Shown here piece by piece: positions 9,902 to 41,742 of a DNA stretch of 64,000 nucleotides. The notes under the pieces are model-generated. The model saw only the letters and a list, made by a program, of their open reading frames with translations, was not told where the DNA came from and ran no database searches. The stretch lies in NCBI GenBank assembly GCA_964385055.1, contig CAYLMH010000001.1:30111-94110 (forward strand), written 5' to 3'. How positions within the stretch are numbered: position 1 is the stretch's first letter; each line of letters opens with the position of its first letter. The position numbers were made by a program, and so were the translations under genes. The stretch is from an uncultured Methanosarcinales archaeon. GTDB lineage: Archaea; Nanobdellota; Nanobdellia; Woesearchaeales; DSVV01.

Positions 9902-11299
9902 ATGCTCGATGTGTTGTTAATTAATCCACCATATACAAAAAAAGGAGGAAATATTTGGAAAACCGTGGCAAGCTGTATGCCTCCTCGTTCTCTTGCAATT
10001 CTTGCAGCATGCTTTGAAAGAGATGGTAAGACAGTAAAAATTCTTGATACACATGCAGAACGACTTGCAGTGGATGACATGGAAGAATTTTTGCGCACGA
10101 ATTATGATAATCCTCGATTTATTGGTTTAACAGGGACAACAGTAACTATTCATCATGCATATGCTGTTGCACAATTATGCAAAAAACTCTGGCCAGAAAC
10201 AAAAATTGTTTTTGGGGGCTATCATGCATCATCAAAACCAGCAGAATGCATTCAGCAGCCATTCGTTGATTTTGTTGTTCGGGGAGATGGAGAAGAAGCG
10301 TTTTTGGAAATAGTCAATGGAGAGGATCCAACAAAGATAAAGAATCTCACATACCTCGATAAAAATAAGAAAGTAATTCATAATCCAGAAAGGGAAATGC
10401 CAAAGGATCTTGACATTTACCCTATTCCTTCGTATCATCTTCTTCCTCTGGACAAATATTTTCCTGCTGTTGGAGTGTACAAACGCCTTCCCGCAATTAG
10501 TGTAGTCACATCCAGAGGTTGCCCTGGAAAATGCACGTTTTGTTATCAGCCATATGGAACAAACCTACGATGGCATTCTGCAGAAAGAGTGTTTGAAGAG
10601 GTAAAACTATTGGTAACAAAATACGGATACAGAGAAATTTGTTTTTATGATGATAATTTTGCAACAAACAAAGCAAGAACAAGAAAGATCTGTGAACTTT
10701 TCCTTGGATCTGGATTAGATATTGTCTGGAGTTGTTTCTCACGAGTAGATTGGGCGGACGCAGAACTTCTCAAACTTATGAAAAAAGCAGGGTGCCATCA
10801 AGTCATGTTCGGCGCAGAGAGTGGCGATCAAGCAATGCTAGATGGAATGCGAAAACAAGTAACACTAGATAGAATCCGACAAGCAGTGAAGTGGACAAAG
10901 GATGCTGGTTTAGATTGTCGTGCAGCATTCCTCTTTGGAATGCCTGGCGAAACAGAAGAAACAATGAAGAAGACAATAGATTTTGCGCTTGAACTTGATC
11001 CAGATATTGCGCAATTTAATATTGCAACACCAAACCCAGGAACACAACTATACGACTGGGCAGAACAAAATGGGTATCTTGGAACGCAGCAATGGGAAGA
11101 CTATGACTGGGCTTCTCCTGTTTTAGTATTACCAACAGTTGATGCTGAACTCGTTAAAAAATATTACAAGCTTGCATATCGAAAGTTCTATATGCGACCG
11201 AGATACATAATAAAACGACTTGGAAAGCTTCGTTCTGTGGAAGATTTCAAAAATGCTGCACGAGCAATGCGAAGTGTTATTGATGTGACGTCACACTAA
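9902..11299 (+). CDS. Cobalamin-binding (class B) radical SAM protein (paralog)
   Basis: MLDVLLINPPY N-terminus and SRGCPGKCTFCYQ CxxxCxxC motif. The start was moved to the internal ATG at 9902, because the ORF N-extension overlaps the divergent gene. Confidence 0.85.
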   Translation: MLDVLLINPPYTKKGGNIWKTVASCMPPRSLAILAACFERDGKTVKILDTHAERLAVDDMEEFLRTNYDNPRFIGLTGTTVTIHHAYAVAQLCKKLWPETKIVFGGYHASSKPAECIQQPFVDFVVRGDGEEAFLEIVNGEDPTKIKNLTYLDKNKKVIHNPEREMPKDLDIYPIPSYHLLPLDKYFPAVGVYKRLPAISVVTSRGCPGKCTFCYQPYGTNLRWHSAERVFEEVKLLVTKYGYREICFYDDNFATNKARTRKICELFLGSGLDIVWSCFSRVDWADAELLKLMKKAGCHQVMFGAESGDQAMLDGMRKQVTLDRIRQAVKWTKDAGLDCRAAFLFGMPGETEETMKKTIDFALELDPDIAQFNIATPNPGTQLYDWAEQNGYLGTQQWEDYDWASPVLVLPTVDAELVKKYYKLAYRKFYMRPRYIIKRLGKLRSVEDFKNAARAMRSVIDVTSH

Positions 11300-25211: not shown

Positions 25212-26012
25212 ATGGAGGAAAAAATTTCTGCGTTTGTCATCACAAAAAATGAAGAAGAGAAGATAGAAAACTGTTTGAACCACCTCCTTTGGGCAGATGA
25301 AATTATTATTCTTGACAGTAAAAGCACAGATAATACAGTCAAAAAAGCAAGAAAATATACAAAGAAAGTGTTTAGTAGGGAATTTGATGGGTATGGTGCA
25401 CAGAAACAAGCAGCAATTGACAAATGCACAAACAACTGGATTCTAGAAGTTGACGCTGATGAAATAGTAACAAAAGAATTACAAGAAGAAATAATAAAAT
25501 TGAAACAGAGTCAAGAAATAAATAAGTATGCAGGATACACAATACAAAGACAAGAATATTTTTTAAACAAAAAACTAATGGTATCAAAAATACCACGATT
25601 ATATAAGAAAGAAAATGTAAGATACAAAGGATACATTCACGAGAAGCTGGATATTAAAGGAAGTATTGGACACCTAAAAAAGAAGATAGAACATGAATCA
25701 GATAAGTATGAATCAATTGCAAAAAGAGTGGAAAAAATAAATGAATACACAAAAAAAGAAGCAGAGCATAAAATAAAAGAACAACAATGGACAACAGCAA
25801 AAGTGCTCCTAAACATGATAATAATCCCTGAATGCTATTTTCTATGGTTTTACTTGCGAAAGGCATTAATTTTAAAAGGATATAGGGGACTTATTTGGTC
25901 ATTACTTACAGCATACTACCATTTCTTAATCTACGCAAAGTTATATGAGTATATTTATAAAGCAAAAGAAGCATCCAACTCGAGGAAATACAATGAAAAA
26001 AATCAAAATTGA
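25212..26012 (+). CDS. GT2 glycosyltransferase, WaaE/KdtX-like
   Basis: ISAFVITKNEEEKIENCLNHLLWADEIIILDSKSTDNT is the pattern of LPS-core-type GT2 (WaaE-like). Confidence 0.75.
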   Translation: MEEKISAFVITKNEEEKIENCLNHLLWADEIIILDSKSTDNTVKKARKYTKKVFSREFDGYGAQKQAAIDKCTNNWILEVDADEIVTKELQEEIIKLKQSQEINKYAGYTIQRQEYFLNKKLMVSKIPRLYKKENVRYKGYIHEKLDIKGSIGHLKKKIEHESDKYESIAKRVEKINEYTKKEAEHKIKEQQWTTAKVLLNMIIIPECYFLWFYLRKALILKGYRGLIWSLLTAYYHFLIYAKLYEYIYKAKEASNSRKYNEKNQN

Positions 26013-26598
26013 ATATCATAAAGGAAAGTGTATTGGCGCGTTTAATTGCACAAATATTGCTCCTGCGTTCTTCAAAGAACAAGGCACGAAAGCGGATCTT
26101 CTTGGCGCAATAACAGAGAAAGGCTATCAAACATTGGATGTGGAATGTGATAACGAAACTGCTGCGCAGATTATAGAGGCTGCGGAAAAATGCCCTGCAA
26201 ATGTCATTAATGTGATTGACAAAACAGCAAACCAAAAAGTAGTGGATACCACAATAAAAATAAAAGAAGATATAAGAGAAATTAAAGCAGAATATGATGA
26301 CAGAAAAGAATTTGTGCTCGATGAAAAAGGATATTTTTTAATTCGAATTGTTCCTGAAAAAAAGATGATAGAAATTGGGTTCTGTGGAAAAAGAAACACG
26401 ATAGAAGTAAAAGTGCATGGAAAAACACCTATTGAAATATACCAAACAGTACTGAAGGAAAAAATAATTGACAGAGCAGATCACGCAGCATATTTAGGGA
26501 GAGAATTGCAAAAAGCGTATACAGCACTTCAATTAGGAATACCTTATGTACAAGATGATGAGCTCGATCTCGAGCACCTAAAGAAAAAAGGGACATAA
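25993..26598 (+). CDS. Ferredoxin-like (divergent Cys-motif) domain fused to an uncharacterized alpha/beta domain
   Basis: MKKIKIEYHKGKCIGAFNCTNIAPAFF....ECDNETAAQIIEAAEKCPANVI has a mono-cluster ferredoxin layout (C-x5-C...C...CP). The start was placed at the ATG 25993, overlapping the upstream GT2 by ~20 nt. The stop lies 2 nt before the radical SAM start. Confidence 0.55.
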   Translation: MKKIKIEYHKGKCIGAFNCTNIAPAFFKEQGTKADLLGAITEKGYQTLDVECDNETAAQIIEAAEKCPANVINVIDKTANQKVVDTTIKIKEDIREIKAEYDDRKEFVLDEKGYFLIRIVPEKKMIEIGFCGKRNTIEVKVHGKTPIEIYQTVLKEKIIDRADHAAYLGRELQKAYTALQLGIPYVQDDELDLEHLKKKGT

Positions 26599-26600
26599 TA

Positions 26601-27977
26601 ATGAAAGTTCTCTTAATATTTCCACCACAAAATCTCGAAGCGAGATACAGCCATAACATGGGTAATGTTGGCGGTTTTCTTCCGCCTTTAGGCCTCTGTT
26701 ATATGGCAGCAGTGCTCGAAAAAGAAAACCATGAAGTCCGCATCATGGATTGTCCAGTGAATGATTACAGAATCAACCATATTCTTGATGAAGTGCGATC
26801 GTTTAAGCCAGATGTTGTGGGAACAGCAGCAATTACCTCGCTTGCAGAAGTCACCAAAGGAATATGCGCTGCGATAAAAAAAGAAGCGCCAGGCACCACA
26901 ATTATGGTAGGTGGTCCACATGCGTCCATCATGCCAAAGGAAGTTGCAGAAACAATGGACGTGGATATTGTTCTTGTTGAAGAAGCAGATGGAAGAATTG
27001 CAGAAATTGTTGCAGATCTTCCAAAATATAAAGAAATGAAAATAGTGCAGTGCGGAAAAGTAAAAGACCTCAATACATTGCCATATCCCGCGCGCCATTT
27101 AGTGGATATGAGCAAATATACAAGCTTGCCAAATACCTACAAAACATCACCAAACGTATTCCAGATGGTCACCTCACGAGGCTGTCCATATACCTGCACA
27201 TTTTGTTTTGACGCAAAAGGCACGTTCAGACAGCGATCAGTAGAAAATGTGATTGGAGAACTCAAATTGCTCCAAAAAGAGTATGGCATCAAAGAAGTCG
27301 CGTTTTGGGATGACATCATGACCTTAAACAAAAAATGGATGCATGATTTCTGTGATGCAGTGGAAAAAGAATTACCAGGACTAGTCTGGAGCTGTTACAC
27401 ACGATTAAATCTCGTGGATAAACCATTGCTTGTGCACATGAAAAAAGCAGGATGTTGGAATATTTTCTTTGGTATTGAAGCAGGAGATCAAGAACTCCTT
27501 GACAATATGAAAAAGCTCATGACTCTCGATCAAATGCGACAAGCAGTCAAGTGGGTACAAGAAGCTGGCATTGAAATTAGAGGCTCGTTTATGATTGGTC
27601 TTCCTGGAGAAACACCAGAAAAAGCGAGAAAAACAATTGACTTTGCGATTGAATTAGAACCAGATTATGCACAATTTTCTATTACCACTCCGTATCCAGG
27701 AACAGAACTTTGGAATACCTATGAAAAATGGGGAACACTGGACAAATCATTCAAGGATTATCATGGCTGGTCCCCAGTCTTCGTTCCGAATGGGTATAAA
27801 GACAGAAAAGAATTAATGGATATTCACAAAGAAGCGTTTCGAAGATTCTACATGCGTCCCAAGTATGTTGCAAGAAGAATTGCAAAAATCAGAACATGGG
27901 ATGACATCAAACGCTATGCAATTGGCGCGCGCGTTGTTTTCGGAATGTTAGGCAGAGAGAAAACGAGTGGACACTAA
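26601..27977 (+). CDS. Cobalamin-binding (class B) radical SAM protein (third paralog)
   Basis: MKVLLIFPPQ B12-domain N-terminus and SRGCPYTCTFCFD CxxxCxxC motif. Confidence 0.85.
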   Translation: MKVLLIFPPQNLEARYSHNMGNVGGFLPPLGLCYMAAVLEKENHEVRIMDCPVNDYRINHILDEVRSFKPDVVGTAAITSLAEVTKGICAAIKKEAPGTTIMVGGPHASIMPKEVAETMDVDIVLVEEADGRIAEIVADLPKYKEMKIVQCGKVKDLNTLPYPARHLVDMSKYTSLPNTYKTSPNVFQMVTSRGCPYTCTFCFDAKGTFRQRSVENVIGELKLLQKEYGIKEVAFWDDIMTLNKKWMHDFCDAVEKELPGLVWSCYTRLNLVDKPLLVHMKKAGCWNIFFGIEAGDQELLDNMKKLMTLDQMRQAVKWVQEAGIEIRGSFMIGLPGETPEKARKTIDFAIELEPDYAQFSITTPYPGTELWNTYEKWGTLDKSFKDYHGWSPVFVPNGYKDRKELMDIHKEAFRRFYMRPKYVARRIAKIRTWDDIKRYAIGARVVFGMLGREKTSGH

Positions 27978-28974: not shown

Positions 28975-29660
28975 GTTCTAATATTAAAAAGACAAAAGAA
29001 TATTTTGATGCAAACCCAACCCATTTCAAGAATGCAGTGGAAGAATATCCTATTATGTATAGGGAAGCAGCTGAACGAATTAACAAATATATCAGAGGAA
29101 TAGTCTTAGACATAGGGAGTGGCGGAATTATTAATTATGATGTGAAAAAAGCAAAAATAGTGATATTAGCAGATATAACAAGCGCAAATAGAGATCGTGC
29201 GAGAAAAAATATTGTTTTCATTAATAGTGATATAAGACGACTAGGAATAGAGAGAGAAAAGATGGATATAGTTGTCATGCAACATCTTTTACATCATCTT
29301 GCGGATAATACACTAAAGAAAACACTCTATAATTTAAAACAAGGAATGAAAGAAACAAATAGAGTAGTAAAAAAAGGAGGGAAGATAATCATTATAGAAG
29401 GATGTGTTCCTCCCTTTTTCGATTACCTGCAACGCATATTGTTTCCCATAAACAGAAAATTGTATAAGTGGATATTCTCATTCCCAATGGTTCTTCAATA
29501 TTCACGAGAGAAGATTGTGAAAGAACTCAAAAAAGCAGGGTTTGCAATAGAATCTGTTGAAGTAATAAAAGATGGAGATGTGCTTCCGATATTTGGATTG
29601 AATCTTCCTCGAAAGTATATTCCGTTAAAGCATTATTGTATTATCGCAAGAAAAAGCTAG
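28971..29660 (+). CDS. Class I SAM-dependent methyltransferase
   Basis: VLDIGSGGIINYD motif I and VKKGGKIIIIEG. The start ATG at 28971 overlaps the upstream stop (ATGA). Confidence 0.7.
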   Translation: MSSNIKKTKEYFDANPTHFKNAVEEYPIMYREAAERINKYIRGIVLDIGSGGIINYDVKKAKIVILADITSANRDRARKNIVFINSDIRRLGIEREKMDIVVMQHLLHHLADNTLKKTLYNLKQGMKETNRVVKKGGKIIIIEGCVPPFFDYLQRILFPINRKLYKWIFSFPMVLQYSREKIVKELKKAGFAIESVEVIKDGDVLPIFGLNLPRKYIPLKHYCIIARKS

Positions 29661-29665
29661 AGAAG

Positions 29666-31378
29666 AGTATGGAAAAAAAAGAAATACTGTTTTTAAGTGT
29701 GATGATAGTGGCTGTCTTTTTTGGACAACTCTATATCGCAGACCGTGTTCTGTTTGGAGATGATTATATTTTTGCAGAATTAGCAAAAAACAATGAATTC
29801 TTCTTTACAGAAAATGCGCATCCACCACTTCCTGTGTGGTCTGATATCACCATAACAGATATTTTTCAATTAACCAACAGAACAATGCGCTTGACATCAA
29901 TTATTTTTGCGACACTAACCATCCCTTTGGTCTATCTATTAGCAAAAAAGACAATTGGACAGAAAGCTGCATGGATTGCAGCACTGATTGTAGGATTTTC
30001 TGCGTGGCATATTCGTGCGTCGCAGATGAATAGTGGCTCTGATGGAGGCATGTTTACATTCTTTTTTTATTGTACTATTTACTTTTTCATAACGTCCTTA
30101 GAAACAAACCAGATAAAAGACAAAGTAGCAACAGGAATTGTGTTTGGCTTAACTATGTTGAGTAAAGAAACAGGAGTATTGCTGATTCCCATATGTGGAT
30201 TATATTATTGCTATTCTATTTGGAAAAAGAAAGAAACAACTACCTCCATAAAGGCAAAAATAACAAAGGGAGCAAAAGATGCAACAATAATACTTTTTAT
30301 TGGGCTGCTGGTTTGGAGTATTTTCCCTGTTCTAGACATGATTTATAATGAAAGCCAGAGTGTCAATGCAATTGTAAGCAGAATAAACACAGCAGTAATA
30401 GAAAAAGAAGCAGGAACCCATAATTATTGGTTTATGACAGTATTTTCCATATTCAAGCTTCTTCTTTGGACAGGACCACTGTTGCTGATGTTTTCATTGT
30501 TGTCTGTTATAACAAAAAGAGAATGGAAGCAAGAGGGAATTTTCATATTTGTTACTATAGTGAGCATGTTATTTTATTTTATTATCACTCCTCCAAATCT
30601 TGATAGAACACGATATTTAATGATCACAATTCCTGCACTTGCAATACTAAGTGCGAAGTATATGGTGATAAAGACAGAGGAATGGGAATTTAGGAAAAAA
30701 GAATGGATAACAGTTGCAGTGTTAAGTGTCATTTTTTTCAGTGCATTCTTGTTTATGAATCAAAATAAAGTAATTGCTTCTTATGAAAGTCAAGAAAATC
30801 CCATTGCATTATTGAAGCAGAGAAATCTTGATTTTTCTATCCCCATATTCACAGAAACAGATAATTCTGGATTTTTATTGCATTTTGGTATTTTCGCTGC
30901 GGCATATGTAATAACTGCACTTGCCTGTGTTCTTTTGCTGCTGAAAAATAAGACAATGGGAAAGATGGTGTTCATTATTGTTCTCAGTATGGGTATTGGA
31001 TATAATTTTGTTGTTGCAGAGGAGTATAGCCTGCACTGGACAAGTCCTAATTATAGTGATGGCATTAAAGAAGTAATCCAATACACAGAGGAAAATCAAC
31101 TTGCAGAACCGTTGTATCTTCTCAAAAACTACGAATTGCAATGGTATTTAGAAGATAAATATACAATGTTCATAAGCGATTATGGCATTTCTGAAACAAA
31201 TGAAGAAAAGATAAAGGAGTTTGAACAGAAGCTACAGAGTGGTGGAACAGTAATTTTCTCAGATATGCCACCGATGGATAAGAATGGGTTATTGTGGAAA
31301 ACAATAAATCAACAGTGTGTTGCAGAGTATACTGTTGTTGATAAGGGAATTGAGATTGGGTGGGTTTGGAGTTGTTGA
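29666..31378 (+). CDS. GT-C glycosyltransferase, ArnT/PMT (GT39/GT83)-like polytopic membrane protein
   Basis: TIPLVYLLAKKTIGQKAAWIAALIVGFSAWHIRASQ is a PMT_2-like region. It has at least 11 TM segments and a C-terminal soluble domain. Confidence 0.55.
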   Translation, partial: SMEKKEILFLSVMIVAVFFGQLYIADRVLFGDDYIFAELAKNNEFFFTENAHPPLPVWSDITITDIFQLTNRTMRLTSIIFATLTIPLVYLLAKKTIGQKAAWIAALIVGFSAWHIRASQMNSGSDGGMFTFFFYCTIYFFITSLETNQIKDKVATGIVFGLTMLSKETGVLLIPICGLYYCYSIWKKKETTTSIKAKITKGAKDATIILFIGLLVWSIFPVLDMIYNESQSVNAIVSRINTAVIEKEAGTHNYWFMTVFSIFKLLLWTGPLLLMFSLLSVITKREWKQEGIFIFVTIVSMLFYFIITPPNLDRTRYLMITIPALAILSAKYMVIKTEEWEFRKKEWITVAVLSVIFFSAFLFMNQNKVIASYESQENPIALLKQRNLDFSIPIFTETDNSGFLLHFGIFAAAYVITALACVLLLLKNKTMGKMVFIIVLSMGIGYNFVVAEEYSLHWTSPNYSDGIKEVIQYTEENQLAEPLYLLKNYELQWYLEDKYTMFISDYGISETNEEKIKEFEQKLQSGGTVIFSDMPPMDKNGLLWKTINQQCVAEYTVVDKGIEIGWVWSC

Positions 31379-31435: not shown

Positions 31436-31969
31436 TTGATTATGGTTATAAAAAAAGTAAACTATTCTAATATCATATCTCCTAAAAACTTTATCCTTTT
31501 GTCTGTCCTTTCTTTTGGTGTCTATCAGTATTTATGGTTTTATAGAAATTGGACTTATTTTGAAGAGAAAGAAAAAATGGACATTTATCCTCTATTTAGG
31601 GTATTGTTAGCTATTTTCTTTGCATATCAATTTTTTAAAAAAGTATTAATCTCTGCTAAGAAGAAAGGATACAAACAATATTACTCCCCTGTATTGATTG
31701 CTGTCCTTTGGATTTTATTTGTTTTAATAGGAAGATTTAATTTTAGATCCAATGATAATACAAACACTTATTTTATAATTTTTTTTATAGCATTGTTTCA
31801 GATTGCCTTTCTTTTACCGGTATTACGTGCACTTAATTTTTATTATAGTAAAGTTGAGAAACATTGTGTAAAACGATCATTAGAATGGTGGCATATCTTG
31901 TTCATTATCTTCTTTCTCCTTCTTTGGGTTGTACTATTATTAAGTTTATTTTTAGTATATGTCTTATGA
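31436..31969 (+). CDS. Small integral membrane protein, hypothetical
   Basis: Four to five hydrophobic helices and no recognizable family. Confidence 0.4.
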   Translation: MIMVIKKVNYSNIISPKNFILLSVLSFGVYQYLWFYRNWTYFEEKEKMDIYPLFRVLLAIFFAYQFFKKVLISAKKKGYKQYYSPVLIAVLWILFVLIGRFNFRSNDNTNTYFIIFFIALFQIAFLLPVLRALNFYYSKVEKHCVKRSLEWWHILFIIFFLLLWVVLLLSLFLVYVL

Positions 31970-32010
31970 ATACAACTAAGCTGATAAAAGAGTGAAGATT
32001 GGATGGGCAT

Positions 32011-32763
32011 TTAGTTGTTAGGGATCGGACCACAATAATTATACTGAAAGCGTGAAAGTTTTCTGAATGCTGCTTCATCATCATATCTTTTTGTTTCATG
32101 ATAAAGGTGGACTAAGCGATTCCCCCCAACCCAAACAGGAAAAGCACTATTTGAGAAACGATCTGGGCTGAAAAGAGAAATAAATGCTTCAGGTTTCACA
32201 TCAGAAGCGCTGAGAAGATCTGCCAAATACTGATAGGCTAAGAGACGAGGAGTATCCTGACGATCAGCAGAGAAAAGACCTGGAATAAGTCTATAGTTGT
32301 CTGAGAGTCCAGCAAGGGTACGCTCAAGCATTCCAACATCAAAATGAGTAACGTGGTGAGGAAGAGCATCAATACGAAGGCCGTCCTCAAGAAGAGTATC
32401 AAGATTTTCAGGAAGAGTTTCAGTCTGTACAAAGGAATCAAGATGTTCTAAGTAGTGTGCAATGAAAGCAGCGTTTCGATGCTTTAAAGCAGTGATATAT
32501 CGTGGACCAAAAACAGTGTGTCCTAGAATTGCTGATGCTGCCATTCCAGATAACGCAACAAGAGCCCCATATACAATTCCATGAAAAAAATCATCTCCTG
32601 GGGGTTCTAATCCTGCAAGACATCCACCGATCCCACCAAAAATAAAAATTCCTGGAACATAAAAATAAGATGCAGTGTTCTCTATAAGAGTATTTTTTCG
32701 TAAATGAAAAACTTCTCGTAAACCATAGGGTAAACCATCTTTATAGCGAATATTCAGTTGCAT
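32011..32763 (-). CDS. Hypothetical protein (GC-richer than neighbours; weak patatin-like glycine motif FGGIGGCLAG)
   Basis: Long ORF with a coding-like composition and no confident family. Confidence 0.4.
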   Translation of the reverse strand: MQLNIRYKDGLPYGLREVFHLRKNTLIENTASYFYVPGIFIFGGIGGCLAGLEPPGDDFFHGIVYGALVALSGMAASAILGHTVFGPRYITALKHRNAAFIAHYLEHLDSFVQTETLPENLDTLLEDGLRIDALPHHVTHFDVGMLERTLAGLSDNYRLIPGLFSADRQDTPRLLAYQYLADLLSASDVKPEAFISLFSPDRFSNSAFPVWVGGNRLVHLYHETKRYDDEAAFRKLSRFQYNYCGPIPNN

Positions 32764-32852
32764 ACAATAGAGAGAAAAACAAGTCTTAATATTCTTACCC
32801 TAAGAAAAAAGTAAGGCAAAAACCTTAAAAAGAGCCATGAATTCTTTTCTGC

Positions 32853-33659
32853 ATGGCGTTATCTTTTTTCTTACCAAACGTAAAGAAGAAATCAACAAAA
32901 GATTATATAATAGAGATTCTTGCAGAAGAAAAAGCGTTAACAAATCAAAAGATCTACAACGTATTAAGAAAAAAGTACGGAGTTGCAAAAAGTTATCAGA
33001 CAATACGTCAAGCGTTAGTAGAGTTAACAGAAATAGGAGTTCTTGAGAAAAAAAAGAAAGAATATTCTATTTCTATTCAATGGATAAAAACAAGCGAGGA
33101 ATTCATTATCTTTCTGAGAAAGAAGTACATTGAGAAGAAAGAAGTCAAGATTATTGATAAAGATACAAAAGAGTTAACGCTGAAATCACTATATGAATTA
33201 GGACATTTTGTGTTATATGGTTTTAAAGAGCATTTTTTTGATATGGAGCAAGAAAATGATCTGTACATGTTTGTCCACCATCTCTGGTTCCCATTCCTTG
33301 ACAAACAAAAGCGAGACCTCTTGAGAAATTTTTTTTCAAGAAACAAGAATACAATATACGTAAAGAACTCATATTTCCTTGACAAAATTCTCGCAATGTT
33401 CTATAAAGAATATGGAAAAGTACTCCTTAACGTAAAATATGATGAATTTTTCGACATTATTATTCAAGGAAATTGTATTGCAAAAATATACCTTCCAAAA
33501 GAGTTACGAGAAAGAATGGATAAGTTGTATCGTTTTAGAAATTTGAATTTTGCAGTTATAGATGAATTAAGTGATATGACATTCGCTAATTACAACATAC
33601 GAGTTCTTATAACAAGAGACAAAGAGATGGTCGAAGAAATAAAAGAGAAATTAAAGTGA
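32853..33659 (+). CDS. Putative winged-helix DNA-binding protein (wHTH N-terminus) with an uncharacterized C-terminal domain
   Basis: N-terminal YIIEILAEEKALTNQKIYNVLRKKYGVAKSYQTIRQALVELTEIGVLEK is typical of archaeal wHTH regulators. Confidence 0.45.
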   Translation: MALSFFLPNVKKKSTKDYIIEILAEEKALTNQKIYNVLRKKYGVAKSYQTIRQALVELTEIGVLEKKKKEYSISIQWIKTSEEFIIFLRKKYIEKKEVKIIDKDTKELTLKSLYELGHFVLYGFKEHFFDMEQENDLYMFVHHLWFPFLDKQKRDLLRNFFSRNKNTIYVKNSYFLDKILAMFYKEYGKVLLNVKYDEFFDIIIQGNCIAKIYLPKELRERMDKLYRFRNLNFAVIDELSDMTFANYNIRVLITRDKEMVEEIKEKLK

Positions 33660-33682: not shown

Positions 33683-34627
33683 TTAATGAATCCTCTGTTT
33701 CCCTACGACAAACCCCTTCCACATAACTAAGAGCGTCGCAAACCAAACAAAAGTATAGACAAACGGAACAAAAACCAATCGCACATCACAAACATGACGA
33801 ACAACATTCACGTGAGTAATATTCGCAAGTAAAAAGATAATGCCAAATATCCCCAAACTCACAGACATATTGAAAAACAAAAACACAAAGAAGAACAACA
33901 CAAGTACTGTCTTCAACAAATCATAAAATAACTGAAACCCCATTTTAAAGAAATACTTCCGATGGAGAACACCCATTGCTTCATGACAGCGTAAGAATGT
34001 TTTAATAAACTTCCAGAGAGAATCATTATGCGGCGCGTGCACATGAGAAACAACTGCGGAAGAAACAACAAATTTGCCATACGCCCGCATCTTCATAAAA
34101 AGATCAGAATCCTCGCCAGCAGTCAAATACGTTTTGTTGTCAAACAATCCACATTCTTCCACAACAGAGGTCTTATACGCAGTTGCGCGTTCATGAATCG
34201 TTTTCTGCAGCTGTAATTCAGGAACAGCGAACACTTTGTGCCAGAAAGAAAACTGCTGCCAAATTTCTCGAGGCAATTGCTGCTGGGACGCGGACAACAC
34301 CACGTGAGGATCGTTAAACGGCTGCATAAGAGCAGACAACCAACCAGCGTCCGCAGGAACACAGTCCTGATGAAGCGTAATAACATACTCTGTCTTCGCT
34401 AATAGAATCCCTTTATTTAATGAACCAGCAAGTCCAAGATTCGTTTCATTTTTAATATAAGTAATACCGCGAGGCATTTCATTCTTCCTATCGCGATCTC
34501 CATTATCAAGAGCAATAATAGTGACTTTTCCAGTATATTTCTGTTTCTTCAACGCACGAACAACAGTATCAATAGGGGCAGAGTGTGTCGGAATGACTAT
34601 GGTCACATGTGGTTCTTTTTGTTTCAT
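33683..34627 (-). CDS. GT2 glycosyltransferase with C-terminal TM helices
   Basis: HVTIVIPTHSAPIDTVVRALKKQ..TIIALDNGD and a DxD-like region, with a hydrophobic C-terminus. Confidence 0.7.
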   Translation of the reverse strand: MKQKEPHVTIVIPTHSAPIDTVVRALKKQKYTGKVTIIALDNGDRDRKNEMPRGITYIKNETNLGLAGSLNKGILLAKTEYVITLHQDCVPADAGWLSALMQPFNDPHVVLSASQQQLPREIWQQFSFWHKVFAVPELQLQKTIHERATAYKTSVVEECGLFDNKTYLTAGEDSDLFMKMRAYGKFVVSSAVVSHVHAPHNDSLWKFIKTFLRCHEAMGVLHRKYFFKMGFQLFYDLLKTVLVLFFFVFLFFNMSVSLGIFGIIFLLANITHVNVVRHVCDVRLVFVPFVYTFVWFATLLVMWKGFVVGKQRIH

Positions 34628-36810
34628 TTCAATCCCTTCTCCTTAAAAAACGAATCAACAGTCTCATTCACAAAAGCCAATTGTTCAGCAGTTAATCCTG
34701 GATACACACCAATAAAAAACGTGTGCGTCATAATAAAATCAGTATTCTTTAAATCACCAACAACACGACAAGTAATCGCTTTATACGCAGGTTGTCTTAA
34801 AAGATTTCCACCAAACAATTCTCTAGTCGCGATCTTACGTCCTTCCAAATACGCGACAAACTCCTTTTTTGTAAATGGCGCATCATGTCGAACAGTAATC
34901 AAATACCCAAACCAGGAAGGATCAGCAGCAGAATGCCTAGAGGGCAATAACAACCATTGATCATACTTCCTAAAATTCGCATCAAGCACAGAAAAATGTT
35001 TCTTGCGAGCAGCAACAAAAGAATCTAATTTATCAAGCTGCGCGACACCAATCGCTGCTTGAATATCAAGAGGCTTCAAATTATAGCCAATATGCGAATA
35101 AATATATTTGTGATCATAGCCCTCAGGAAGATCGCCCAGTTTCCAGCAAAAGCGTTTACCGCAGGTATTCGCAACACCTGGCGCGCACCAGCAATCTCTG
35201 CCCCAATCACGAAGAGATTCCATAATCTTCTTCAAAATAGGGTTATTCGTAAACACAGCGCCACCTTCACCCATCGTAATGTGATGCGCAGGATAAAAAC
35301 TCAACGTGCCAATGTCACCAAACGTACCGACATGTTGACCATTGTATGTACTTCCAAGAGCGTCGCAGCAATCTTCAATCAAAAATAAACCATGGTCGCG
35401 AGCAAACGCGCTAATCGCATCCAGCGCGTATGGCATCCCTAAGGTGTGCGCAACAACAATTGCTTTTGTTTTTGGACTCATTGCCTGCTTAATCTTTTCC
35501 AAAGAAATATCATACGTTCCAAGTTCAATGTCAACAAACACAGGAACTAAATTATTCATAATAATCGGATTCACCGTCGTGGGAAAGCCCGCGGCAAGCG
35601 TGATCACTTCATCGCCTGGTTTTAATTGCCTCTCTCCTAAAAGCGGAGAACAAAGCGCGGAAACAGCGAGTAAGTTCGCAGAAGAGCCAGAGTTTGCCAA
35701 TAAAGCAAATTTTGCCCCAACTTTTTCTCCTAATTTTTTACAAAATTTCTGATCCCACGGACCAAGTGTTAACCAGAAATCAAGAGACGCGTCCACTGCG
35801 TTTTGAATCTCAGCGCTATCAAAAACTCTACCTGCGTATGGAACAGCGGATTTCCCAGGAACAAAAGGATCCGCAGCAAACGCTTTTTCCCAATACTGTT
35901 TGACAGAAGAAACGATGTTCTTTTTCAACGCAGTTCCTTTCTGCGATCGAGTTGCTTTCATTTCCTGCAACGCAGTAAACGGCGTTTTGAACACCATACC
36001 TAGTTCTGCTTCAATCTTTGTGCAAACAAGTCCGCCTTTTCGTGGTCTATTCGCAGGTTGCTTCAATGCTTCTGTGCTAATAGATTTGATCAAATTTTTA
36101 TCTAATCCAAAAACAAGTGCAATCTTTTCCGCAAACGCAAGCCTAGACATATATTCTGGACCAGCAGTATGATACAAACCAGTCTTCTTTGCTTCTGTTA
36201 ACAGAACAAGCGCGCGAGCAAGATCAGAAACAAACGTAGGAGTCGCGTATTGATCACAAACAACAGGACTTTCTTTTCCTTCTTCGAGTGTTTTGATAAA
36301 TTTCGCAACAAAATTCTTTCCAGCAGCTTCCCAGCCATACACGGTCGTTGTTCGCGCAATGCAACCAAGAGTTGGTAATTTCGCAAGAACGTCCTGCTCA
36401 ACCTGCAGTTTGTGTTGACCATACACATTTAATGGATGAACAGAAGCGTCTTCTGTATACGGACCATCTTGTCCATCAAAAACATAATCTGTCGAAACAA
36501 AAAGATAATATTTCTGCTGTTTCGCACACCAATCAATAATGTGCTGCGACCCAAGAAGATTAATCTTTTCAGATTCCTGTGGCTGTTGTTCACAAAAATC
36601 AACCCACGGCTGCGCAGCAGGCTGAATCACTGCGTCAGGAAGAAGCGTGTTCAGTACTCTCTCCACTTCTTCTTTATTAGTAATGTCAAGTTTAATCATC
36701 CCTGGAAGAGGAGTTTTACAATACGTTCCAAACACCTCGTGATTCTCGTGAAACGCAGTATAGGTTTCATTGCCCACAAATCCGCTTGCGCCAATAACAA
36801 GGATTCTCAT
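34624..36810 (-). CDS. Fusion of an RmlD-like SDR reductase (N-terminus) and a DegT/DnrJ/EryC1/StrS-family PLP/PMP-dependent sugar aminotransferase/dehydrase (C-terminus)
   Basis: N-terminal MRILVIGASGFVGNE plus YHTAGPEYMSRLAFAEKI resemble dTDP-4-dehydrorhamnose reductase. The C-terminal ~430 aa (ALLANSGSSANLLAVSAL, ..FYPAHHITMGEGGAV..) are DegT-family. It is one continuous 741-aa ORF, and its ATG abuts the upstream gene's stop. Confidence 0.75.
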   Translation of the reverse strand: MRILVIGASGFVGNETYTAFHENHEVFGTYCKTPLPGMIKLDITNKEEVERVLNTLLPDAVIQPAAQPWVDFCEQQPQESEKINLLGSQHIIDWCAKQQKYYLFVSTDYVFDGQDGPYTEDASVHPLNVYGQHKLQVEQDVLAKLPTLGCIARTTTVYGWEAAGKNFVAKFIKTLEEGKESPVVCDQYATPTFVSDLARALVLLTEAKKTGLYHTAGPEYMSRLAFAEKIALVFGLDKNLIKSISTEALKQPANRPRKGGLVCTKIEAELGMVFKTPFTALQEMKATRSQKGTALKKNIVSSVKQYWEKAFAADPFVPGKSAVPYAGRVFDSAEIQNAVDASLDFWLTLGPWDQKFCKKLGEKVGAKFALLANSGSSANLLAVSALCSPLLGERQLKPGDEVITLAAGFPTTVNPIIMNNLVPVFVDIELGTYDISLEKIKQAMSPKTKAIVVAHTLGMPYALDAISAFARDHGLFLIEDCCDALGSTYNGQHVGTFGDIGTLSFYPAHHITMGEGGAVFTNNPILKKIMESLRDWGRDCWCAPGVANTCGKRFCWKLGDLPEGYDHKYIYSHIGYNLKPLDIQAAIGVAQLDKLDSFVAARKKHFSVLDANFRKYDQWLLLPSRHSAADPSWFGYLITVRHDAPFTKKEFVAYLEGRKIATRELFGGNLLRQPAYKAITCRVVGDLKNTDFIMTHTFFIGVYPGLTAEQLAFVNETVDSFFKEKGLK

Positions 36811-36811
36811 G

Positions 36812-37822
36812 TTAGAAATACTCCGCTTCTCGACCTTTATAGAACGCATGCGTTTGTTTCAATCCTTCTTGTAAAGAGGTCTTTGGCCACCAACCAAGCA
36901 TTCGATGGATTTTTGCAGGATTGACCACAAAATCGCCGATCTCAATTGCTTTGCGGCTAGTGTCCCACTCTTTTTTCTCAATAACCATAGAAGAGCCAAC
37001 AACAGAAAGAATAGTGTTGCACATATCAATGAATTTCGTCTCGTGATTGCTGCCTAAGAAAAACATTTCACCAATCGCTTCTTGTTTTTGCGCAACAAGC
37101 AGCAATGCATCCACAACATCCTGCACATAATTATAATCACGAGTTTGCAGTCCTTCACCATTAATACTGATTTGTTCATTGCACATTGCTTTACGCAAAA
37201 AGAAATTGACAATCCCATAATCCCCATGCTTCATGTCTGCGCGTTCACCATACGTATTGTTAATGCGCACAACGCAGGTATTCATCCCATGCATGCGATG
37301 ATAGAGTAAATAGTATTTTTCAACAGCAAGTTTGTTGATCCCATTAATATCCATTGGACTTGTAGGATGTTCTTCAGTAATAGGTTTGTGCACCATCTTG
37401 CCCACAGCGCCGCGAGTGCCTGCATAAATTAAAATAGCGTTTTTGTTGAACTGCCGCACAGTCTCAAGAACGTTCATGCCGCCGCGTAAGGTAATGTCAA
37501 TATCGAGCTGCGGATCTTTAACAGAAATAAGATGACTGACTTGCGCGGCGCAGTCGTAAATAACATCCTGCCCTACAACTGCCAATTGCAATGCAGCGAC
37601 ATCGCGGGTATCTCCTTTGATAAATGTAATATGATCACGAATTTCTTTGATGTTTGCAAAATTCCAGCCATACGGATCAAGACATGCGTCGTAAATAGTC
37701 ACAGATGCCCCTAAACCAACGCAGCGCTGTGCGATGTTGCTTCCAATAAAGCCAAGTCCTCCAATAACTAAAACGTTCTTGCCATCCATTCTTTCAAGAG
37801 TGTAATTTTCGTTCATGTTCAT
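36812..37822 (-). CDS. NAD-dependent nucleotide-sugar epimerase/dehydratase (SDR)
   Basis: VLVIGGLGFIGSNIAQRCV Rossmann motif and YAGTRGAVG. Confidence 0.8.
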   Translation of the reverse strand: MNMNENYTLERMDGKNVLVIGGLGFIGSNIAQRCVGLGASVTIYDACLDPYGWNFANIKEIRDHITFIKGDTRDVAALQLAVVGQDVIYDCAAQVSHLISVKDPQLDIDITLRGGMNVLETVRQFNKNAILIYAGTRGAVGKMVHKPITEEHPTSPMDINGINKLAVEKYYLLYHRMHGMNTCVVRINNTYGERADMKHGDYGIVNFFLRKAMCNEQISINGEGLQTRDYNYVQDVVDALLLVAQKQEAIGEMFFLGSNHETKFIDMCNTILSVVGSSMVIEKKEWDTSRKAIEIGDFVVNPAKIHRMLGWWPKTSLQEGLKQTHAFYKGREAEYF

Positions 37823-37923
37823 TTACCTTATTTTTTTATTACTCGTTGCTTTTGAATCGCTCAATCATTCAGATTCGCCATGCAGGCTTTTGAATCACCA
37901 TGCTTTTTTGTATTTTTTTAATG

Positions 37924-38931
37924 TCAGTCATCATCAGATGCAGGTGAATTTTTCTTCTTATCAAAATAATCATGATACCACGCAATCGTTTCCCGCAACC
38001 CTTCTTCAATGCCGTGTCGTGCTTTCCAGCTAAGAACACGCAATGCTTTATCGCTGGACAAATATTGCGCAGGAATTTCTGCCTTTGCAGTGTTTTGAAC
38101 GTCTGGAGTGAGAGTGCTCTTCATCTGCTGCTGAAGAACCTCAACAACATCAAGGACTTTCATTCGGTTATTCGTGCTAAAATTAAATGCCTGTCCGCGC
38201 ACATCAGCTCGATGCAAATTTTCCGCAAGAAGAATATATGCGTCAATCACATCTTTGATGTAAATGTAATCGCGAATATATTGTCCATCGCTGCGGATAA
38301 TTGGTCGCTCGTTAAAGAGGAACGAACGAATAGTACCAGGAATAATTCTATTAAAATTCAAGTCTCCACCACCATAAATATTGCCACAACGAGTAACAGC
38401 AACAGGTAAGCCATACGTCGCGTAATACGCATGAGCGATCATATCTGCGCATGCTTTAGAAACATCATACGGGTGTTCAGCAAGCAACGGCATTTCTTCA
38501 GAATAGGGAAGAACAGGTTGCGTGCCATACGCTTTATCCGTTGACGCGACAACAATGCGCTGCACAGTACCAACATGTCTGCACGCTTCTAACAAAACCC
38601 ATGTTCCTTTAATGTTTGATTCAAAAGAAGAAAGTGGAGAACGTGTTGCAGTCTGCACAATCGTTTGCGCGCCGAGATGAAACACAGTATCAATTTCATA
38701 TTCATTCAAAATGCGTTCAACAACTTCAATATCAACAAGATCCCCGCGCACAACAATAATTTTTTCAAACACAGGAGAGGAAACAAGCAGCGAATCAGGC
38801 ACCCAATCGCGAATAAGGACAACAACAGTTGCTCCTTTTTGCACAAGTGCATTAGTAAGCCAGCTGCCCAGTAAGCCAGTTGCTCCTGTCACAAAAACGC
38901 GTTTATTTTTCCAGTCAAACATAGTCATCAC
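37924..38931 (-). CDS. CDP-glucose 4,6-dehydratase (RfbG/DdhB-like)
   Basis: KRVFVTGATGLLGSWLTNALVQKGATVVVL and YDVSKACADMIAHAY (YxxxK) follow the RfbG-like layout. Confidence 0.8.
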   Translation of the reverse strand: MMTMFDWKNKRVFVTGATGLLGSWLTNALVQKGATVVVLIRDWVPDSLLVSSPVFEKIIVVRGDLVDIEVVERILNEYEIDTVFHLGAQTIVQTATRSPLSSFESNIKGTWVLLEACRHVGTVQRIVVASTDKAYGTQPVLPYSEEMPLLAEHPYDVSKACADMIAHAYYATYGLPVAVTRCGNIYGGGDLNFNRIIPGTIRSFLFNERPIIRSDGQYIRDYIYIKDVIDAYILLAENLHRADVRGQAFNFSTNNRMKVLDVVEVLQQQMKSTLTPDVQNTAKAEIPAQYLSSDKALRVLSWKARHGIEEGLRETIAWYHDYFDKKKNSPASDDD

Positions 38932-38935
38932 AAAA

Positions 38936-39700
38936 TTATTTCCAGATTTTCCAAGGCTTTTCTGTTTGCCAGAGTTTATTCAAATGCAAATAATCTCTGT
39001 ATGTATCCATGCATTGCCAGAACCCATCGTGTTGGTACATCGCAAGTTGCTGTTGTTCAGCAAGCTTGGGAAGCGTGGTAAATTCAAACATATTATCGTC
39101 AAGATGAGAAAAGATTTGCGGAGTAAAAACAAAAAAACCACCGTTAATGCGATCATTTAAGACAGGTTTCTCGACAAATGCGTTGATGATACTCTCTTCG
39201 TTTGTTTTCAATGAACCGTATTTAGAAAGCGGGCGAATACCAGTAATTGTTCCCAACTTTCCTTTTGCTTTGTGGAATTGAAACAAATCTCTAATATTGA
39301 CATCACTAACGCCATCGCCATACGTCACAAAGAAATCATCCTCTCCGATAAAGGGTTGAATAAGTTTAAGTCGTTTTCCCGTAAGCGATTCTTCGCCAGT
39401 ATCAACGCAAGTCACATGCCAATCTTCTGTCGCAGACTCATGAAGCGTGACTGCGCCTGATTTTAAAGAAATAGTGACGTTATTAGTTTGCGTTTTGTAA
39501 TTCAGGAAATAATTTTTGATCATTTCTCCTTTGTAGCCAAGGCAAAGAATAAATTCATTGAACCCATAGTGTGCGTAATGATTCATAATGTGCCAAAGAA
39601 TAGGTTTTCCGCCGATTTCGACAAGGGGTTTTGGCTTGTATTCTGTTTCCTCGCGAAGCCGTGTTCCCATTCCGCCGCATAAAATTACTACTTTTGTCAT
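38936..39700 (-). CDS. rfbF: Glucose-1-phosphate cytidylyltransferase (RfbF/DdhA)
   Basis: MTKVVILCGGMGTRLREETEYKPKPLVEIGGKPILWHIMNHYAHYGFNEFILCLGYKGEMIKNYF matches RfbF almost motif-for-motif. Confidence 0.9.
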   Translation of the reverse strand: MTKVVILCGGMGTRLREETEYKPKPLVEIGGKPILWHIMNHYAHYGFNEFILCLGYKGEMIKNYFLNYKTQTNNVTISLKSGAVTLHESATEDWHVTCVDTGEESLTGKRLKLIQPFIGEDDFFVTYGDGVSDVNIRDLFQFHKAKGKLGTITGIRPLSKYGSLKTNEESIINAFVEKPVLNDRINGGFFVFTPQIFSHLDDNMFEFTTLPKLAEQQQLAMYQHDGFWQCMDTYRDYLHLNKLWQTEKPWKIWK

Positions 39701-39792
39701 AGCTGTTCCCTATCGAGAGAAAAACAAAGAGGCTTTTATAAAGCTTATTGAACAATAATCGAGTGGTTTTCCAAAAAAGAGGAACAAAAACA

Positions 39793-41277
39793 CTATGCGG
39801 ATTTTCTAAAGAAGTGAGCAAGTTCCTGAAAAGTAAGGACACGGAAAGAAAACAAAAAAGAAAAATAAAGAACAGAAAAGAGAAACGCAGAACAAACAAA
39901 CGCAACAAAGCCATAAGGAAGATAATTTTTTGCAAAGAACACAACAGCAGCGCTCAAAATGCCAAAAAGAAACGTAAGAAACCATGTTCGAAGAGGAAAT
40001 GTAAAGGCAAGAAAACGCCGAAGCAGAAATGTTGAGAAGAAAAACAAGAGAAGATACGACGCCATCGTAGAAAATGCAGCGCCGATCATGCCATACAGAG
40101 GAACAAAAAGAAAATTAAGAAGTGCATTAAAAAGAGCAACACCTGCAACAAGAAGCGCCATATGTTTGACTTTTCCTAAACCTGTAAAAATAATGCCATT
40201 AAAGAGAGAGAACGCATAAAAAAATGTACCAAAGGTGAGAAGCTGAAGCGCTGGTGCAGCAGCAATATACGCGCGGTCAAACAAAAAAGAAATCAAAAAA
40301 TCAGGAAAAAGGAGGAACGCAGCAGCGCAGGGAAGGAGAAGAATAAAGAGGTAGATGTAGGAATGCGTGATCGCGCCGGACAACGCCTCATGTTTTTTTT
40401 CAGAAACAAGTTCTGTTGCAAGCGGAGAAAAAACAATAGTCACAGGCCGCATGAAAAAAAGCAGCAAAAGAGAAAGGGGAAGCGCAACATTATACAATCC
40501 AACAGTCTCAAGAGAGGTAAAGTACGTCAAAAACAACGTGTCTGTTTGCGTCAATAAGATCCAGCCAAAATTCGTGAATGCAATGAAGATGCCATAGGAA
40601 AATGCAGAGCGAAGAAGCGCGGGATCAAAGAAAGACGAAATGGAGAGCGAAGAAGGAACAATCTGCGGAAAGAAGCGATAGACATACGAAAAATAACAAA
40701 AAAAGAGAACCAACTGAACAAGCGCATACGCGAGGATCGGGCTCATAAGTCCATTGCCAAGAGAGAGAAGAAGTCCAGAAACAAGAACCACAAATCCCAT
40801 CCTGAAAAAATCAAGTGCAGTATACCATGTTGTTCGCTGAAAGCCGAGGAGCAAGGAAGCAAGGAACAAAATGAGAGGAGTAGTCACAAACCAAATACCG
40901 AGGAGCTGCAATACAGAAACTGCGGCAGGGGTGTGAAAATACGAAAGCGCGATGGTATCCGCAAACAAGAGAACAAGAATATACAAAAGAGCAGAGAGAG
41001 AAAGCTGAAAAAAGAGAATGGAAAAACTGAGTGCGCGAATCTTATCGTATTGTTTTTGAAGGCGAAATTCAACAATGTGTTTTGTTGCAGCTTGTTCCAG
41101 TCCAAGATCAATAAAGAGCATGAAAAAACTGTAAAAAGAAACAACGCTAAAAAATAATCCATAATCCGCGACAGAGAGTGTCGAAGTCAAAAGCTTCCTA
41201 AAAAGATATCCAAGCAAACTTCCTAAAATAATGAAAACAAAAGAAAGGCTTACTCCACGAACAATCCGTTGGTACAT
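39793..41277 (-). CDS. Polysaccharide biosynthesis protein, Wzx-like flippase (MOP superfamily)
   Basis: About 14 TM helices, with an N-terminal YGLFFSVVSFYSF Wzx-like region. Start at ATG 41277. Confidence 0.7.
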   Translation of the reverse strand: MYQRIVRGVSLSFVFIILGSLLGYLFRKLLTSTLSVADYGLFFSVVSFYSFFMLFIDLGLEQAATKHIVEFRLQKQYDKIRALSFSILFFQLSLSALLYILVLLFADTIALSYFHTPAAVSVLQLLGIWFVTTPLILFLASLLLGFQRTTWYTALDFFRMGFVVLVSGLLLSLGNGLMSPILAYALVQLVLFFCYFSYVYRFFPQIVPSSLSISSFFDPALLRSAFSYGIFIAFTNFGWILLTQTDTLFLTYFTSLETVGLYNVALPLSLLLLFFMRPVTIVFSPLATELVSEKKHEALSGAITHSYIYLFILLLPCAAAFLLFPDFLISFLFDRAYIAAAPALQLLTFGTFFYAFSLFNGIIFTGLGKVKHMALLVAGVALFNALLNFLFVPLYGMIGAAFSTMASYLLLFFFSTFLLRRFLAFTFPLRTWFLTFLFGILSAAVVFFAKNYLPYGFVAFVCSAFLFSVLYFSFLFSFRVLTFQELAHFFRKSA

Positions 41278-41742
41278 AAAACAAAAGAACAAAAGTCGCT
41301 ATAAAAAACTTGTGCATGAAAGGATTTTCTATGAAAGAATGCCAACAACAACAATGGCATAGGGAAAAACACGCACCAGAATCGAAAAAGAATCGCTCAG
41401 CAAAGACCTACTACACAATTTATCTATTTTTTATTAAGAGAATGAAAAAAGACAAAGAAAGTAAGTGGAAAGATTTGATGAGAATAATGAAAAAGAAGGA
41501 ACAGCTATCCATGGTTCCCACACAACAGTGCAGTACAACATGGAACGTGGGTGTTCTTGACGGCTGTGTTCGAAATGGGAACAGGTAGAGCCACACCACT
41601 ATGGCCGTTCACGAATATGTGGATAACGGGTTTATTTATAAAGGTTTTGTAAAATCAAAGAAAACGCACCTAAAAAAGAACAAGACAACCCATAGAATCA
41701 AACATCATAACCTATATAAATGCTCCAAAGCCTCTCCGTCTG

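Follow-up and report, generated by a model that had tools for sequence, protein, structure and literature searches.

The window analyzed here is a stretch of 64,000 nt (64 kb) of DNA from an uncultured archaeon, and all positions given below are numbered within it; the related loci that we compared with it are designated L001-L015. On its minus strand, a block of co-directional genes at 33683-41292 contains an open reading frame (ORF) that joins an RmlD-like reductase domain to an E1-like dehydrase domain, together with further genes of a candidate cytidine diphosphate (CDP)-sugar pathway. A preliminary description of this DNA had named four ORFs, and all of them were present on the minus strand at the coordinates it gave. 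The ORF at 38936-39700 encodes the predicted glucose-1-phosphate cytidylyltransferase RfbF/DdhA, which would make CDP-glucose (TIGR02623, PF00483), and the one at 37924-38931 an extended short-chain dehydrogenase/reductase (SDR) resembling the CDP-glucose 4,6-dehydratase RfbG/DdhB (TIGR02622). They are followed by SDR2 at 36812-37822, an extended SDR recognized with Pfam and a candidate epimerase acting on a 4-keto intermediate, and by the fusion ORF at 34624-36849.

Architecture of the Fusion ORF

The fusion ORF is an unbroken frame of 741 codons, in which both expected Pfam domains were found: PF04321 (RmlD_sub_bind) at residues 14-297, with 214 bits, and PF01041 (DegT_DnrJ_EryC1) at residues 346-731, with 295 bits. 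The preliminary description had divided the protein into one third and two thirds, and the actual proportions are about 40% and 60%, with the putative NAD(P)H-dependent RmlD-like 4-ketoreductase domain encoded at 35950-36810 (minus strand; PF04321, TIGR01214) and the E1/RfbH/DdhC domain, a predicted C-3 dehydrase dependent on pyridoxamine 5'-phosphate (PMP) and a [2Fe-2S] cluster, at 34624-35943 (minus strand; NF011936, PDB 3BCX). The ATG at 36810 lies 1 nt past the TAA of SDR2 and is preceded, at a distance of 13 nt, by a GGAG. Since 10 of the 11 aligned archaeal homologues begin exactly at this methionine, M14, with the remaining one starting a single residue earlier, and the first 13 codons of the frame fall within the upstream SDR2 gene, the real start is probably M14, which would give a product of 728 aa. 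A frameshift artifact was considered and ruled out, because the junction between the domains aligned without gaps with 15 full-length homologues from independent metagenomes. No identical record of the window protein was retrieved by exact look-up. In the AlphaFold model (mean predicted local distance difference test score, pLDDT, of 83; predicted template modeling score of 0.60), the N-terminal domain had a pLDDT above 90, the junction appeared as a long helix (residues 289-322), and the Fe-S loop was of low confidence; the model gives no inter-domain geometry.

For the C-terminal domain, the two roles initially considered were those of an E1/DdhC-type dehydrase and of a sugar aminotransferase. 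The domain reached 679.3 bits with NF011936, the RfbH equivalog model, whose cutoff is 423, and matched the Yersinia E1 structure 3BCX with 525 bits and about 60% identity over 428 residues. Within the motif SFYPAHH, His522 (35284-35286) aligned with His220 of 3BCX, i.e., at the position where a Lys forms the Schiff base with pyridoxal 5'-phosphate, and the query agreed at this position with wild-type 3BCX and not with its H220K mutant 3BB8. This His was invariant in the fusion alignment, and Cys495, Cys553, Cys555, and Cys563 (35161-35367) were conserved in 16 of 16 aligned fusion proteins. Their spacing, C-X57-C-X1-C-X7-C, corresponds to the unusual [2Fe-2S] motif of E1 (PMC8987622, citing Agnihotri 2004). 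An active-site Lys next to a deoxythymidine diphosphate (dTDP)-type transferase would have pointed away from a dehydrase; what was found instead is His, with CDP as the nucleotide. Judged by these residues and scores, the domain is an E1-type C-3 dehydrase and not an aminotransferase, and the first of the two roles was borne out. Two homologues were observed to contain inteins: P0002, a Woesearchaeota-type RmlD–E1 fusion of 1203 aa, carries a LAGLIDADG intein directly C-terminal to the catalytic His pair (..SFYPAHHM/SCSKD…FLHN/TMGEGG..), and P0064, a standalone RfbH of 880 aa, has intein domains too.

The N-terminal domain scored 210.4 bits with TIGR01214 (rmlD), just below the cutoff of 224.05, and we therefore refer to it as RmlD-like and not as RmlD. 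No paratose or abequose synthase model matched this domain in the NCBIfam scan. It contains the motif GASGFVG (36772-36792), S119/T120 (36490-36495), Y143 (36421-36423), and K147 (36409-36411), and the GxxGxxG, the Ser/Thr, Tyr143, and Lys147 were invariant across clades in the fusion alignment. By its sequence, the domain is an RmlD-like 4-ketoreductase that looks catalytically intact. In the bacterial loci L006, L007, L009, and L010, the fusion is accompanied by just three pathway genes, those for RfbF, RfbG, and an RmlC-like cupin of 149 aa; as no other reductase is encoded there, the fused domain is the sole candidate for the terminal reductase.

The Companion Enzymes and the Slot Upstream of the Fusion

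The identification of RfbF was confirmed, with 321.9 bits for TIGR02623 against an equivalog cutoff of 300.25. The RfbG-like protein gave 205.4 bits with TIGR02622, its best NCBIfam model, though under the cutoff of 278.45; its best PDB matches were the CDP-glucose 4,6-dehydratases 1RKX and 1WVG (Yersinia/Salmonella), and it has an STDK motif at residue 130 and the YxxxK motif (YDVSK) at residue 155, so that the earlier label of a gene similar to CDP-glucose 4,6-dehydratase was kept. The CDP-linked pathway of the 3,6-dideoxyhexose type put forward in the preliminary description was supported, with RfbF and the E1 domain both above their equivalog cutoffs.

The protein encoded between RfbG and the fusion had been described simply as another SDR, and it is not an ordinary member of that family. 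In SDR2, the GxxGxxG motif, Thr136, and Lys164 are kept, and Asn160 is found where the catalytic Tyr is expected, a placement given by HMMER alignments to 4ZRM, 7YS8, and 9RL0. This Asn was invariant in four archaeal orthologues and in the orthologue of the bacterial locus L008, and among the 121 closest relatives of SDR2, most of them from DPANN archaea, the site was occupied by Asn in 70, Tyr in 40, and Gln in 11. Members of the SDR2 family (P0398-P0517) with Gln or Tyr were also observed in other deoxy- and amino-sugar clusters with DegT genes (L013, L014).

The slot 5' of the fusion is filled in two ways. In the bacterial loci L006, L007, L009, and L010, it holds the 149-aa RmlC-like cupin (PF00908), for which the PDB entry 3EJK, a "dTDP sugar isomerase", was matched with 128 bits, and in the bacterial locus L008, all the Woesearchaeota-type loci, and the Micrarchaeota locus L012, it holds SDR2. 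Among the loci examined, the two genes never co-occurred in the slot, and the slot was never empty. From this position, we infer that SDR2 takes the place of the RmlC-like epimerase. The catalytic Tyr of SDRs would be dispensable for an enzyme whose 4-keto sugar substrate is already oxidized. A further proposal, which we consider tentative and on balance doubtful, is that the Tyr-less SDR2 represents a new non-redox 5-epimerase of 4-keto sugars with an SDR fold, replacing the cupin RmlC-type enzyme, and that DPANN cells display an ascarylose-like L-dideoxyhexose.

Electron Supply to the E1 Domain

The preliminary description had regarded the gene set as complete for the canonical dideoxy sugars, and here it was contradicted. 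The reductase E3/DdhD, composed of a plant-type ferredoxin domain (Fer2) with FAD and NAD domains, was not detected when all 60 non-nested window ORFs with 150 aa or more were scanned with Pfam, nor was it seen in 12 related loci (L001-L010, L012, L015), and the nearest standalone RfbH, P0066, has no E3 neighbor either. In Yersinia and Salmonella, ddhD belongs to the gene cluster (PMC5399914). SpnQ, which is homologous to E1, is served by reductase pairs of the general ferredoxin or flavodoxin kind (PMC8987622). As the locus has no E3/DdhD gene of its own, a general donor encoded elsewhere is assumed, and a housekeeping one-electron donor serving E1 would be the ordinary explanation.

Distribution and Origin of the Fusion

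About 18 RmlD–DegT proteins were retrieved from a collection of 5.8 billion proteins; eleven were full-length with 67-85% identity and five had 46-48% identity, the rest being fragments. The close clade, called archaeal by its similarity to the window, comprises L001-L005, where the gene order is flippase–RfbF–RfbG–SDR2–fusion–GT2–PMT_2; L004 also encodes ScpB, like the window. The distant clade is bacterial (Gram-negative), as genes for LpxK, Kdo kinase, and heptosyltransferase are found in L006. When the N-terminal domain was compared by HMMER with 1.84 billion cluster representatives, three RmlD–DegT clusters appeared among the top 150 matches (P0001, P0268, and a third lineage, P0233), and the same scan showed RmlD domains fused to GT2, amine-oxidase, and RmlC-like partners. 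The architecture had been called unique and uncommon: it is indeed rare, but it is not unique, as three or more lineages of archaea and bacteria possess it, and Micrarchaeota have an adjacent unfused pair.

That unfused pair lies in L012, with the order RfbF–RfbG–SDR2–RmlD-like (291 aa)–E1 (433 aa)–GT2–GtrA–PMT_2. Here, the end of rmlD runs 8 nt into rfbH, with the stop of the one and the start of the other inside ATGGATGA. This arrangement is the precursor state, from which a small indel would suffice to fuse both genes. Identity to the E1 domain of the window was 60-64% for unfused proteins and 47-57% for the other fusion lineages, and the corresponding values for the reductase domain were 41-56% and 36-39%. 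The window domains thus have their closer relatives among unfused proteins and not in the other fusion lineages, suggesting independent fusions, of which there were apparently at least two or three.

A scan of 185,579 GTDB species representatives with the archaeal alignment of the N-terminal domain found only L011, a standalone reductase, and is no measure of how widely the fusion is spread. The gene, at 980-1897 of JBAZCJ010000042.1, encodes an RmlD-like protein of 305 aa between a flippase and a GT2. In a neighbor-joining tree, this reductase nests inside the fusion clade, a placement that could reflect either fission or deletion, or the ancestral state.

Host, Gene Neighborhood, and Sugar Transfer

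The named relatives closest to the window's seryl-tRNA synthetase, at 74-77% identity, are all annotated as "Candidatus Woesearchaeota archaeon", which indicates that the host is a DPANN archaeon, small and of the symbiotic type. The window also encodes RadA, ScpB, Cdc6/Orc1, and A-type ATPase subunits, and about its first 45 kb are occupied by a glycosylation island. This island includes seven family 2 glycosyltransferases (GT2), one GT1, one GT9, and three PMT_2 glycosyltransferases of the GT-C type, along with three B12-dependent radical S-adenosylmethionine (SAM) enzymes, methyltransferases, two UDP-glucose dehydrogenases, and several SDRs. Both the GC content of the operon and its GC content at third codon positions fell inside the range of the housekeeping genes, with no compositional sign of recent transfer.

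The first gene of the co-directional block encodes a MOP/Wzx-type polysaccharide flippase (39793-41292, minus strand; PF01943 Polysacc_synt with 74.9 bits, PF13440, MatE), which occupies the same place in L001-L004. At the other end of the block, the fusion stop and the start of a GT2 gene (33683-34627, minus strand; PF00535) overlap by 4 nt. This GT2 consists of a GT-A domain and a hydrophobic C-terminus with transmembrane helices (residues ~235-310); it gave no match in the PDB, and it is probably a polyprenyl-phosphate sugar transferase for the operon product. It lies directly 3' of the fusion (or of the unfused E1 in L012) in seven of ten homologous loci (L001-L006, L012), and the other bacterial loci differ. 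Further on, an ArnT-like PMT_2 membrane glycosyltransferase of the GT-C type (29636-31378, plus strand; PF13231 with 66 bits, PF02366) is likely the final transferase; its counterpart is found beside GT2 in L001-L005 and L012 and beside RfbF in L006. No GtrA was found in the window, and L012 has the full GT2-GtrA-PMT_2 trio. Gtr/Arn systems attach the sugar to polyprenyl phosphate, flip it, and transfer it on the outer side of the membrane. By analogy, GT2 and PMT_2 may carry out a similar lipid-linked transfer of the operon sugar.

Other features of the neighborhood were recorded. Between GT2 and PMT_2, at 31436-33659, there are three ORFs of 177, 250, and 268 aa that matched no family, and the two 2-kb composition windows over this segment have a lower GC content (0.32-0.35). 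The corresponding gap contains only a 59-aa ORF in L001-L003 and none in L004-L005, where the two genes are direct neighbors; the segment is possibly an insertion. The segments 62-1654 and 3618-4883 (both plus strand) hold between them a 530-aa cytidylyltransferase-like gene and a GT9 heptosyltransferase-like gene, and these gene types are typical of the bacterial lipopolysaccharide core and also occur in the bacterial fusion locus L006. Four paralogues of 600-670 aa with about 10 transmembrane helices and no Pfam match are encoded at 4914-6908 (minus), 18704-20527 (minus), 23135-25141 (plus), and 47889-49889 (minus), the first and the last sharing 35% identity (E 3e-84), and a fifth protein without a Pfam match, at 11333-13291 (minus), has 14 such helices. 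These proteins are spread through the glycosylation island, similar unannotated genes of about 660 aa were seen in L001-L004, and they are possibly undescribed GT-C-like transferases or polymerases. The B12-binding radical-SAM enzymes, at 8345-9814 (minus), 9797-11299 (plus), and 26601-27977 (plus), and a protein with Fer4_15 and PterinBD-DUF4346 domains at 25945-26598 (plus) all lie inside the island, and the pair of a ferredoxin-like and a radical-SAM gene is kept near the operon in L001-L003. Their presence suggests radical methylation of sugars and a local Fe-S protein.

Discussion

Read as a whole from its genes and sequence alone, the block at 33683-41292 is, with good probability, the surface-glycan operon through which a Woesearchaeota (DPANN) archaeon makes and uses a CDP-activated 3,6-dideoxyhexose. 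In the proposed route, RfbF would generate CDP-glucose and the RfbG-like SDR would convert it to CDP-4-keto-6-deoxy-D-glucose. The E1 domain of the fusion would then strip the C-3 hydroxyl via a PMP-glucoseen intermediate, which would be reduced through its own [2Fe-2S] cluster with electrons from a general ferredoxin or flavodoxin system coded elsewhere. SDR2 would probably epimerize the resulting 4-keto-3,6-dideoxy sugar, a step presumably taken by the RmlC-like cupin in most bacterial loci, and the fused RmlD-like domain would reduce C-4 with NAD(P)H to give a CDP-3,6-dideoxyhexose. An RmlC-like step followed by an RmlD-like one after C-3 deoxygenation leads to 3-deoxy-L-rhamnose, i.e., ascarylose, and the product is most likely an ascarylose-like sugar of the L-series. 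As Thorson and co-workers reportedly described in 1994, Eep and Ered (AscE/AscF) perform the epimerase and reductase steps of the Yersinia ascarylose pathway, and the RmlC-like and RmlD-like pair would parallel them in these roles. Finally, the translationally coupled GT2 and the PMT_2 enzyme would move the sugar via a lipid-phosphate carrier to a surface glycan. The fusion itself may have been born when an rmlD-like gene lost the stop codon that separated it from an adjacent, overlapping rfbH gene, and it would couple the maker of a labile 4-keto intermediate to its consumer.

A product of the D-series was the proposal of the preliminary description, which had named abequose, paratose, and tyvelose. 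Here, the fused reductase would make CDP-paratose or CDP-abequose directly, and SDR2 would be either a TyvE-like 2-epimerase giving tyvelose or unrelated to the pathway. Fusing consecutive enzymes would be the simplest form of channeling, and the CDP-tyvelose 2-epimerases 9RL0 (103 bits) and 1ORR (89 bits) are among the PDB matches of SDR2. However, the TyvE-type redox 2-epimerase requires the SDR Tyr as its catalytic base (PMC13098431), and SDR2 has Asn160 at that member of the Thr-Tyr-Lys triad of CDP-tyvelose 2-epimerase. Moreover, the reductase resembles the rmlD equivalog (210 bits) and matched no synthase model for paratose or abequose, and in most of the homologous loci from bacteria, the gene immediately 5' of the fusion encodes an RmlC-like epimerase. 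The resemblance of the reductase to RmlD and this RmlC-like neighbor point instead to the ascarylose-like L-series, and we regard a D-series product as possible but unlikely. Membership of PF01041 would be compatible with an ordinary DegT sugar aminotransferase making a CDP-amino-deoxy sugar, but with His in place of Lys, the Fe-S motif, an RfbH score of 679 bits, and every aminotransferase model far under its own cutoff, this alternative, also raised initially, was rejected as having next to no chance of being correct.

The absence of E3, both in the window and in each of the 12 related loci examined, together with the repeated independent fusion, which suggests selection for physical coupling, could be explained if the fused SDR domain replaces E3/DdhD. 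In that case, the protein would be a C-3 deoxygenase that needs no partner and runs on NAD(P)H, with a new way to reduce the PMP-glucoseen, and the RmlD-like domain would be not only, or not at all, a terminal 4-ketoreductase. In either form, we consider this very improbable, as SDRs perform hydride transfer and lack a flavin that could split electron pairs, E1 strictly conserves its one-electron [2Fe-2S] motif, and the fused domain carries the full signature of a sugar 4-ketoreductase; besides, the bacterial loci would be left with no terminal reductase, the standalone RfbH loci are also devoid of E3, and SpnQ runs on general reductases. Still less credible is that the two domains serve unrelated pathways, e.g., dTDP-L-rhamnose and a CDP-sugar, and were fused through chance adjacency. 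The lone reductase of the L011 woesearchaeote and the other fusion partners of RmlD domains would be in line with this idea, but adjacency or fusion with E1 is kept in Woesearchaeota, Micrarchaeota, and Gram-negative bacteria, always within an RfbF-RfbG operon, and the 64-kb window has no RmlA or RmlC gene; the fusion has as its neighbors a cytidylyltransferase, RfbF, and a dehydratase of the CDP type.

Several observations weigh against the proposed 3,6-dideoxyhexose operon. The RfbG-like and RmlD-like parts are each just under their NCBIfam equivalog cutoffs, and the stereochemistry of the product is not fixed by sequence. SDR2 lacks the catalytic Tyr, its family varies between Asn, Gln, and Tyr at this site, and the epimerase role is deduced purely from position. 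Small DPANN genomes may be without suitable reductases to supply E1. The L011 locus, from a Woesearchaeota metagenome-assembled genome, has a 55%-identical standalone RmlD-like gene and no RfbF, RfbG, or E1, indicating that this reductase lineage is able to work outside a dideoxyhexose pathway. As to the independent fusions, the trees are neighbor-joining trees built on similarity-selected matches, which weakens that claim.

The 3,6-dideoxyhexoses are rare and known mainly from Salmonella and Yersinia O-antigens, as documented in a genome survey (PMC7725333). E1-dependent 3,6-dideoxyhexose chemistry is known; the recurrent RmlD–E1 fusion, the E3-less organization, the Tyr-less SDR in the epimerase slot, and the DPANN host are new, and we found no literature on any of these four, nor anything relevant on DPANN archaea with dideoxyhexoses or on RfbH fusions. 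The pathway would thereby gain new hosts in DPANN archaea (Woesearchaeota, Micrarchaeota), which probably make contact with host cells through their surface glycans. As a Rosetta-stone fusion, the protein links E1 to an RmlD-type terminal reductase, a link that seems to have evolved repeatedly. Environmental E1 systems often come without the textbook E3, raising the question of the electron donor, and the Tyr-less SDR in the epimerase slot is a concrete candidate for a new type of sugar epimerase. The enzymes would also serve as compact tools for the chemo-enzymatic synthesis of CDP-dideoxy sugars.

Both halves of the fusion have well-known counterparts. With E1/DdhC/RfbH/AscC of Yersinia pseudotuberculosis and Salmonella (3BCX), the window domain has in common the catalytic His, the PMP-binding fold, the [2Fe-2S] motif, and an operon shared with RfbF and an RfbG-like gene; it differs in its fusion to an N-terminal SDR reductase, in having no ddhD/E3 nearby, and in its DPANN rather than enterobacterial host. 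The dTDP-4-dehydrorhamnose reductase RmlD (2GGS, 1VL0, 1KBZ) agrees with the window domain in its Pfam domain, Rossmann motif, and Ser/Thr-Tyr-Lys triad, whereas the window domain appears in a CDP and not a dTDP pathway, has E1 as its fusion partner, and probably acts on a 3-deoxy analogue of the RmlD substrate. SpnQ, from the forosamine branch of spinosyn biosynthesis, is a 3-dehydrase with Fe-S cluster and His but no dedicated E3, and thus a precedent for an E3-less locus; unlike the window fusion, it acts on a dTDP-2,6-dideoxy substrate, is unfused, and comes from an actinomycete natural-product cluster. For the transfer steps, the Gtr/Arn systems (GtrB/ArnC as GT2, GtrA/ArnEF as flippase, and GtrC/ArnT as GT-C) likewise combine a GT2, here with a transmembrane tail, and a nearby PMT_2 enzyme, whereas the window lacks a detected GtrA and its donor would be a CDP-sugar. 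The asc module of Yersinia has been described (PMC5399914), and it is the CDP-ascarylose pathway of Y. pseudotuberculosis O:5a (ddhDABC with ascE and ascF) that offers a parallel for the route as a whole. In the window, E3 is missing, the epimerase slot is taken by a Tyr-less SDR (or by a cupin in homologous loci), and the reductase is fused to E1, yet the logic appears to be the same, with a cytidylyltransferase, a 4,6-dehydratase, E1, an epimerase, and a 4-reductase.

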